443 bases of DNA, from assembly GCF_003334385.1 (NCBI RefSeq), contig NZ_QOWN01000180.1; one strand, given 5' to 3'. Position 1 is the first letter of the stretch. Every line of letters begins with the position of its first letter. Positions 1-443 of the stretch are shown here, one piece after another. The notes under the pieces were generated by a model, which was given only the letters and a program-made list of their open reading frames with translations, was not told the DNA's origin and ran no database searches. Source of the DNA: Escherichia coli. Its GTDB lineage: Bacteria > Pseudomonadota > Gammaproteobacteria > Enterobacterales > Enterobacteriaceae. The position numbers and the translations under genes are program-made.

Positions 1-245
1 ATGCCGCTACACTTTAGCCAGCCCATGTTTTCCACCGGGGAATGGGCTGACGGTATCCATAAAGTGACAAACCTTTTCAACAACTGCCACATTGAACGGC
101 ACGGGTGATTTCGGATTATTGTCTCATGAAGCGCCTGCCACAACCGTTCGACATGATTCACCCACGGCGAGTAAACTGGCTGATAAATCATCCTGAACTT
201 CGGATCAATATCCGGCACTTCATTCTCTGATATCTCCGACCCGCA
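1..245 (-). pseudogene. IS630/Tc1-mariner-like (DDE_3-type) transposase, 5'-truncated C-terminal remnant; open frame runs off the window at position 1
   Basis: Minus-strand translation from 245 down to 1 is open for about 81 codons: [81 protein letters not shown]. The motif YSP-x-V-N-H-V-E-x-x-W has the same spacing as the IS630-family YSPxLNPIExxW motif that carries the catalytic Glu, and is followed by the usual basic/hydrophobic tail. An in-frame TAA (plus-strand 246-248) lies only about 32 codons upstream of that Glu, so the rest of the catalytic domain is absent. First in-frame ATG is at 192-194 with no good Shine-Dalgarno. Family call is from memory of motifs, not a search. Confidence 0.5.
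19..49. repeat. Inverted repeat with 8-bp arms (cagcccat / atgggctg) and a 15-nt spacer
   Basis: Read directly: 19-26 cagcccat is the reverse complement of 42-49 atgggctg; spacer 27-41 is gttttccaccgggga. It lies inside the minus-strand transposase remnant. No U/T run follows on either strand, so it is not an intrinsic terminator. Confidence 0.25.
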
Positions 246-250
246 TTAAT

Positions 251-370
251 CTGAAAGAAATAGAAATTCACTGGTGTGAAGTGCTACGTCTGGCGACCTC
301 AATAAAACAGGGAACAGTGACAGCATCCCTGATGCTGAGAAAACTTGCCAATTACCCCAAACAAAAGTAA
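251..370 (+). pseudogene. Tn3-family transposase (TnpA) internal fragment, truncated at both ends
   Basis: Plus-strand frame (codons at 251, 254, ...) reads [39 protein letters not shown] then stop TAA at 368-370. This resembles the conserved C-terminal-region block of Tn3-family TnpA, recalled as roughly HWDD-LLRLA-S-K-GTV-AS-LL-KL-AYPRQNGLA. The frame is open back to 197 but has no start codon or ribosome-binding site, and it stops where intact TnpA would continue. No Tn3-type 38-bp terminal inverted repeat is present. Confidence 0.7.
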
Positions 371-391
371 GCGTACAGCCTGAACCGTCTG

Positions 392-404
392 GTCAGAATC
401 TGAC
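392..404. repeat. 13-bp perfect palindrome gtcaga-a-tctgac
   Basis: Read directly: 392-397 gtcaga is the reverse complement of 399-404 tctgac, around a single central A at 398. The loop is too short for a stable hairpin, so if functional it is more likely a dimeric protein-binding site. Function is unknown. Confidence 0.3.
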
Positions 405-443
405 GAATTAGACAAAGTGGTGTCCACCAAATAAGTAGTGGGA

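Follow-up and report, generated by a model that had tools for sequence, protein, structure and literature searches.

The closest described relatives of the locus analysed here are insertion sequences of the IS630 family, whose target specificity is CTAG/TA, and among them the ISSpu2-like elements, intact copies of which are carried by plasmids of Klebsiella (L004) and Pantoea (L010). The intact relatives have terminal inverted repeats of 20–22 nt, with CTAAATAACTGATCCTAATA in the right arm, and the protein of the Klebsiella copy scores 252 bits against the NCBIfam profile of the IS630 transposase (NF033545). An IS630-family pseudogene also occurs on plasmids of enterotoxigenic Escherichia coli (ETEC; for example NZ_CP024237.1 and NC_009790.1), downstream of capU-virK-lpxM (msbB2). 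Another element that touches the locus is IS2, the indigenous promoter of which, PIRL, has its extended −10 motif at IS2 base pairs 48–56 and has been described as a weak promoter that IS2 OrfA can repress (Lewis et al., PMC3299598).

Here we analyse a 443-nt stretch of DNA, referred to as the window, which opens on the ATG of a 35-codon plus-strand frame. The coordinates, the peptide and the TGA stop that the initial annotation had given for this frame were reproduced exactly (Table 1). We conclude with high confidence that the frame is a shadow frame in the debris of a dead ISSpu2-like IS630-family element and that it is non-coding, a result that prevents a spurious 'hypothetical protein' call in insertion-sequence debris.

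Table 1. Coordinates of the features in the 443-nt window, with the observations on which they are placed
Feature	Positions	Strand	Detail
35-codon ATG..TGA open frame	1–108	+	ORF listing and translation; peptide MPLHFSQPMFSTGEWADGIHKVTNLFNNCHIERHG
ATG start codon	1–3	+	A-to-G at position 3; inverted-repeat positions 18–20 of the IS
3′ end of ISSpu2-like IS630-family IS	1–203	−	IS positions 18–219 of about 1158; cut at 203/204
Transposase stop codon TAG	7–9	−	Aligned ends of PGAP pseudogenes/CDSs in L001, L002, L004 and L005; translations end in ...GKHGLAKV-stop
Imperfect inverted repeat CAGCCCAT...ATGGGCTG, inner 4-bp stem	19–49		Within the last transposase codons
T4 run, T5 in homologues (1-bp deletion)	74–77		Gap in every BLAST alignment to relatives; T5 in 15/15 database homologues
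Plus-frame TGA stop	106–108	+	Reached only in the deletion-bearing lineage
Tn3-family transposase gene fragment	204–365	+	Translation of 206–370 against NF033527, positions 778–828 of 954, E=3.4e-15
IS66-family left end, putative	366–443	+	Starts GTAAGCGTACAGCCTGAAC...

The first part of the window is an IS630-family remnant

In a megablast search of 72,556 plasmids and 5,426 complete E. coli genomes, positions 1–203 matched minus-strand features annotated as "IS630 family transposase" or "IS630-like element ISSpu2 family transposase", and the matches to the remnant comprised 855 records from E. coli genomes (804 genomes) and 776 from plasmids, the two sets partly overlapping. BLAST of the intact L004 element against the window placed window position 1 at IS position 18 and window position 201 at IS position 219, and in the alignment of 16 homologues the tip of the IS lay 17 nt before the first position of the window. 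Of the element, the window therefore retains about 65 C-terminal codons (10–203), the transposase stop codon and, from the right terminal inverted repeat, the inner 3 nt; the full right inverted repeat is present just upstream in the two contigs, L018 and L019, that are described below, and the left end is absent. The frameshift-corrected minus-strand translation matched NF033545 at profile positions 250–298 of 299 (E=1.3e-14) with a score of 54 bits, which falls short of the cut-off of 100 bits set for the whole protein, no more than 64 aa being left. A complete and intact DDE transposase gene is not present in the window, the deletion in the T run having shifted the frame of the surviving codons, which break off at 203/204, and the element must therefore be regarded as a remnant and not as an active IS. 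As the initial annotation had stated from the letters alone, the 35-codon frame lies wholly inside this minus-strand remnant and is entirely antisense to it.

Two smaller observations concern the same stretch. At window position 69, a G-to-A difference from most homologues changes a conserved transposase Arg (KKVRHF) into Cys, and from the alignment this reads as a further sign that the remnant is drifting. The imperfect inverted repeat at 19–49 has a longer equivalent in the intact Pantoea copy (13 nt, 92%); folding gave unremarkable values (plus strand, z −0.12; minus strand, z −1.87), and the repeat is probably incidental, with no sign of function.

The start and the stop of the plus-strand frame are recent and lineage-specific

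The length of the frame is at chance level and carries no information. When the window was shuffled 5000 times with its dinucleotides preserved, 90% of the shuffles had an ORF of 35 codons or more that began with ATG, and 99% of the same shuffles had one when any of ATG, GTG or TTG was accepted as start. The window itself contains eight further ORFs of 20 or more codons, and two, at 43 and 41 aa, are longer than the frame at 1–108 and are no better supported.

Sixteen homologous copies with 84–98% identity were aligned together with their flanks, and the equivalent plus frame was translated in 15 of them, the truncated E. albertii copy (L013) being left out of the per-copy counts that follow. 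The plus frame is codon-aligned with the transposase, plus codon position 1 corresponding to transposase position 3, so that a plus-strand stop needs a TTA, CTA or TCA codon in the sense strand. None of these three codons occurs among the last 30 transposase codons, and in the relatives the plus frame ends at codon 32, which lies across from the Ser codon (TCA) of ...CRSMW....

The triplet at 1–3 is ATA in 10 of the 15 aligned homologues, including both intact elements (L004 and L010), and the left-arm counterpart of the inverted repeat in the intact copies (TATT) also gives ATA. ATG was found at this place only in the window lineage and in five close relatives (L001, L002, L005, L006 and L016). 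With ATA in most copies and in both arms of the repeat, the start codon is best explained as a derived A-to-G change in the inverted repeat. The stop has a separate origin: the T5-to-T4 deletion frameshifts the transposase remnant and lets the plus frame skip the TGA at codon 32 and run on to the one at 106–108, so that it has 35 codons in place of 31. In 11 of the 15 relatives the plus frame has 31 codons and a different tail (...NLFQQLPH-stop), and in the other four (L008, L009, L014 and L017) it ends after 5 codons; the stop position thus differs in every relative. Given these differences in ATA/ATG, in T5/T4 and in the tail, start, stop and C-terminal sequence are each specific to one decaying lineage.

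Three things together account for the frame. The antisense frame is open by virtue of its codon register, the last 30 transposase codons giving no plus-strand stop; a G in place of A within the terminal inverted repeat has turned ATA into ATG, and a 1-bp deletion in the T5 run has shifted the frame past the TGA of the relatives to 106–108. The codon-aligned antisense register, the change at the start and the deletion can each be read directly from the comparison of the aligned copies. The case shows how two trivial mutations (ATA to ATG in the inverted repeat and the loss of 1 bp from a T run) can yield a tidy-looking ATG-to-stop frame.

The pattern of substitutions points in the same direction. 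Variable columns at transposase codon positions 1, 2 and 3 numbered 11, 5 and 15 in the overlap and 18, 9 and 32 over 195 nt, the position that varies most being plus codon position 1. The Nei-Gojobori pN/pS summed over pairs for the same stretch was 0.25 in the transposase frame versus 0.64 in the plus frame, values that are descriptive only, with about 30 codons and non-independent pairs. On this descriptive basis, the direction of the substitutions is what one would expect had the transposase frame alone ever been constrained, and the variation fits that frame and not the plus frame.

No counterpart of the 35-codon frame in the sampled annotations or in exact look-ups of predicted proteins

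No plus-strand gene was called at 1–108 in any of 80 sampled annotated hits, in which the match carried 'IS630 family transposase', 'transposase' or nothing, and none was found in 17 fetched annotated regions. The exact 35-aa peptide, its 31-aa relative and two other ORFs of the window were absent from about 15 billion predicted proteins and 153 billion gene positions, and the 35-aa peptide had no match in NCBIfam. The reservation in the initial annotation, that the frame might be a small annotated hypothetical gene, is thus not borne out, since all 80 sampled hits showed transposase or nothing and the exact peptide is missing from the collections.

Among the 72,556 plasmids and 5,426 complete E. 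coli genomes, no record contained 80% or more of the whole window, and no complete E. coli genome or PLSDB plasmid reached 99% or more identity over 1–203. Within the databases searched, the 35-codon variant was confined to three metagenome contigs. The junction at 186–225 had 0 exact matches in contigs of species-representative genomes. The window is a mosaic, the parts of which occur separately.

The upstream region of near-identical contigs offers a putative promoter remnant and no ribosome-binding site

Because the window opens exactly on an ATG, the window alone leaves an upstream continuation possible, in which case the frame would be the tail of a longer plus-strand gene. The sequence upstream was inferred from metagenome contigs 99.8–100% identical to the window and not from the window's own source. 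An exact scan of metagenome contigs with window positions 58–115 retrieved three: L018, which covers the whole window at 99.8% identity, and L019 and L020, which cover positions 1–421 at 100%. In L018 and L019 the sequence that runs into the ATG is ...TAGACTGGCCCCCTGAATCTCCAGACAACCAATATCACCTAAATAAGTGATAGTCTTAATA followed by CTAAATAACTGATCCTA, and an in-frame TAA at −12 closes the plus frame, which refutes a longer gene for the near-identical contigs. Moreover, the 80 nt that precede the ATG consist of the IS630 inverted repeat and the IS2 inverted repeat, the last 17 nt being the former and the preceding 63–64 nt the left end of IS2. The nearest plus-oriented ORF, a homologue of a fimbrial subunit, ends about 190 nt upstream of the ATG and is followed by a strong, terminator-like hairpin with a T-run (AAATAGGGAC-TTT-GTCCCTATTTTT, in RNA letters AAAUAGGGAC-UUU-GUCCCUAUUUUU; −13.4 kcal/mol, z −3.4). 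This hairpin, on the minus strand of L019 at 565–592 and about 150 nt upstream of window position 1, was not reported by a consensus terminator scan but was confirmed by folding; hairpin and T-run together would be predicted to limit read-through from the fimbrial operon. A longer gene is, on this evidence, scarcely conceivable.

The IS2 left-end fragment (L019 436–498, L018 4265–4327) has 63–64 nt, lies directly upstream of window position 1 and is 98.4% identical to annotated IS2. The tip of the IS630-family element abuts IS2 at CTAG (IS2 positions 62–65), CTA precedes all the aligned copies and the other IS end is lost; since the IS630 repeat adjoins the IS2 left end at this very place, an IS630-type element was in all likelihood inserted at the CTAG of IS2. 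The fragment carries one substitution (T39 to C) in the stretch protected by OrfA/transposase, and retains the PIRL motif TGATAGTCT, oriented toward the ORF, with the hexamer ending 22 nt before the ATG in L018 and L019.

This arrangement allows one to imagine a recently born micro-gene, in which the PIRL remnant of IS2 would drive transcription, the mutated base of the repeat would supply the ATG, and a 35-aa peptide would be made without a Shine-Dalgarno (SD) sequence. If so, it would be a very young de novo micro-gene of 35 aa built of transposon wreckage, with a 1-bp deletion setting its stop, on a plasmid of the enterotoxigenic/enteroaggregative E. coli type, beside a chaperone-usher fimbrial cluster. 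The extended −10 of PIRL, kept 22 nt upstream in the correct orientation, is in its favour, and downstream of the in-frame TAA at −12 no canonical start precedes this ATG. The sequence around the start is rich in A/U and lacks structure (MFE −6 kcal/mol, z +1.3), which would permit initiation without an SD sequence. L019 has the remnant a second time, inverted (4699–5109; L019b), and the same ORF recurs there, with the same ATG and the same deletion; the frame is open over 31 codons in 11 of 15 relatives, although this is expected for an antisense frame of this register.

The remaining evidence weighs heavily against such a gene. No SD sequence was found in the 20 nt that precede the ATG: in the near-identical contigs and relatives, the most stable pairing with the anti-SD ACCUCCUUA was +0.6 to +1.8 kcal/mol. 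The value for the near-identical contigs was +0.6 kcal/mol, whereas the two controls, lacZ and a consensus SD, gave −4.3 and −12.9. A consensus scan of L019 250–800 (which begins about 380 nt before the ATG and extends about 170 nt into the window) gave no sigma-70 promoter on either strand. That scan misses the weak PIRL defined in the literature, so that PIRL, besides being weak and repressible by OrfA, fails the consensus search. Furthermore, L019b has the ORF without any IS2 fragment upstream, and the ORF is therefore not tied to the PIRL promoter. Start and stop each hang on a single lineage-specific mutation in decaying DNA, the length is what chance would give, and the peptide has no family, yielded no homologues in exact look-ups and in NCBIfam, and has never been called as a gene. 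It is conceivable, from the sequence of the predicted PIRL remnant, that the ORF is transcribed at a low level and even that some SD-independent initiation takes place; a micro-gene is nevertheless very unlikely.

The non-coding shadow frame thus remains the reading that we prefer. From the lack of an SD sequence, the unconserved start and stop, the substitutions that follow the opposite strand and the absence of any recorded product, we infer that no functional peptide is made. The initial annotation had called the frame "most likely a shadow frame", and that call gains from both lines of evidence on which it could have failed: the recovered upstream sequence holds no ribosome-binding site, and the frame is not conserved among the homologous copies.

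An antisense or structured RNA finds little in its favour

The candidate promoter, PIRL of IS2, points across the remnant, and the remnant is 93% identical to intact ISSpu2-family elements of Enterobacterales plasmids. A plus-strand RNA antisense to the 3′ end of the IS630-family transposase mRNA could thus be imagined to damp transposition of intact ISSpu2-like elements in trans. The juxtaposition of IS2 and IS630, however, is accidental (an insertion at CTAG in IS2) and is found only in this lineage. No Rfam match was obtained for the window, even at a permissive threshold, the plus-strand fold of 1–108 was no better than that of shuffled sequences (z −0.12), and the rest of the remnant downstream contains no terminator. 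Where antisense RNA is known to control IS elements, it targets the 5′ translation-initiation region and not the 3′ end, which also counts against such an RNA, and we consider it extremely improbable. A structured RNA at 1–108 was likewise considered and rejected, the fold being no better than shuffles.

The rest of the window and its wider neighbourhood

The Tn3-family fragment stands where the ETEC plasmids continue the IS630 remnant. Positions 201–443 are contiguous, at 98.8%, on a plasmid of E. coli O39:NM that also has pet. Beyond the Tn3-family fragment, the sequence of 366–443 probably represents the left end of an element of the IS66 family. In L003 it runs, 15 nt past the window end, into an annotated 'transposase' gene and then into an IS66-family tnpB; in L001 the same stretch is interrupted by an IS3-family pseudogene.

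In L019, and likewise in L020, two inverted copies of the IS630-family remnant (L019 221–438 on the minus strand and 4699–5109 on the plus strand) bracket a 4.3-kb segment, with the IS tips pointing inward; the ATG and the T4 deletion are present in both copies in L019. Genes for a fimbrial chaperone, an usher and a FimG/StaE-like subunit lie within the segment, and an AraC/HilD-like regulator as well as IS91, IS110 and IS66 transposases are found near it. The bracketed segment looks like a composite-transposon-like or recombined module on a plasmid of the ETEC/EAEC type. The mosaic as a whole, made up of an IS2 end, an IS630-family remnant, a Tn3-family fragment and an IS66-family end, is typical of virulence plasmids and represents no new biology.

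Comparison with known systems

Compared with the intact ISSpu2-like elements of the Klebsiella and Pantoea plasmids (L004 and L010), the window has 93% nucleotide identity over 1–201 and shares the right inverted repeat, the transposase stop, the C-terminal sequence YSPWVNHVERLW...GKHGLAKV-stop and the match to NF033545. It differs in having IS positions 18–219 of about 1158 only, in the 1-bp deletion and in the Tn3-family fragment that cuts the element at 203/204, and it has neither the left end nor the DDE core.

The IS630-family pseudogene of the ETEC plasmids is closer still, with 98% identity over 1–203, and PGAP annotates it as an incomplete minus-strand transposase with no plus-strand gene called. 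Its insertion site is different, however, with lpxM upstream in place of IS2, and it has T5 and not T4, hence a 31-codon plus frame with another tail; the remnant there runs 50 nt further before an IS66-family end is reached. With respect to IS2, the fragment upstream of the ORF in L018 and L019 has the PIRL motif TGATAGTCT together with the flanking left-end sequence, 98.4% identical and in the same orientation as the ORF, whereas the IS2 leader, its SD (GGAG) and the orfA start have been removed here by the IS630 insertion at 62–65.

Finally, the frame resembles the antisense, codon-aligned shadow ORFs in its register with the transposase codons, in a sense strand without TTA, CTA or TCA, and in its chance-level length; as in such ORFs, the frame of the relatives closes opposite a TCA Ser codon. 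It departs from them in that the sense gene is dead here, both truncated and frameshifted, and in that the start and the stop were each made by mutation in a decaying remnant.
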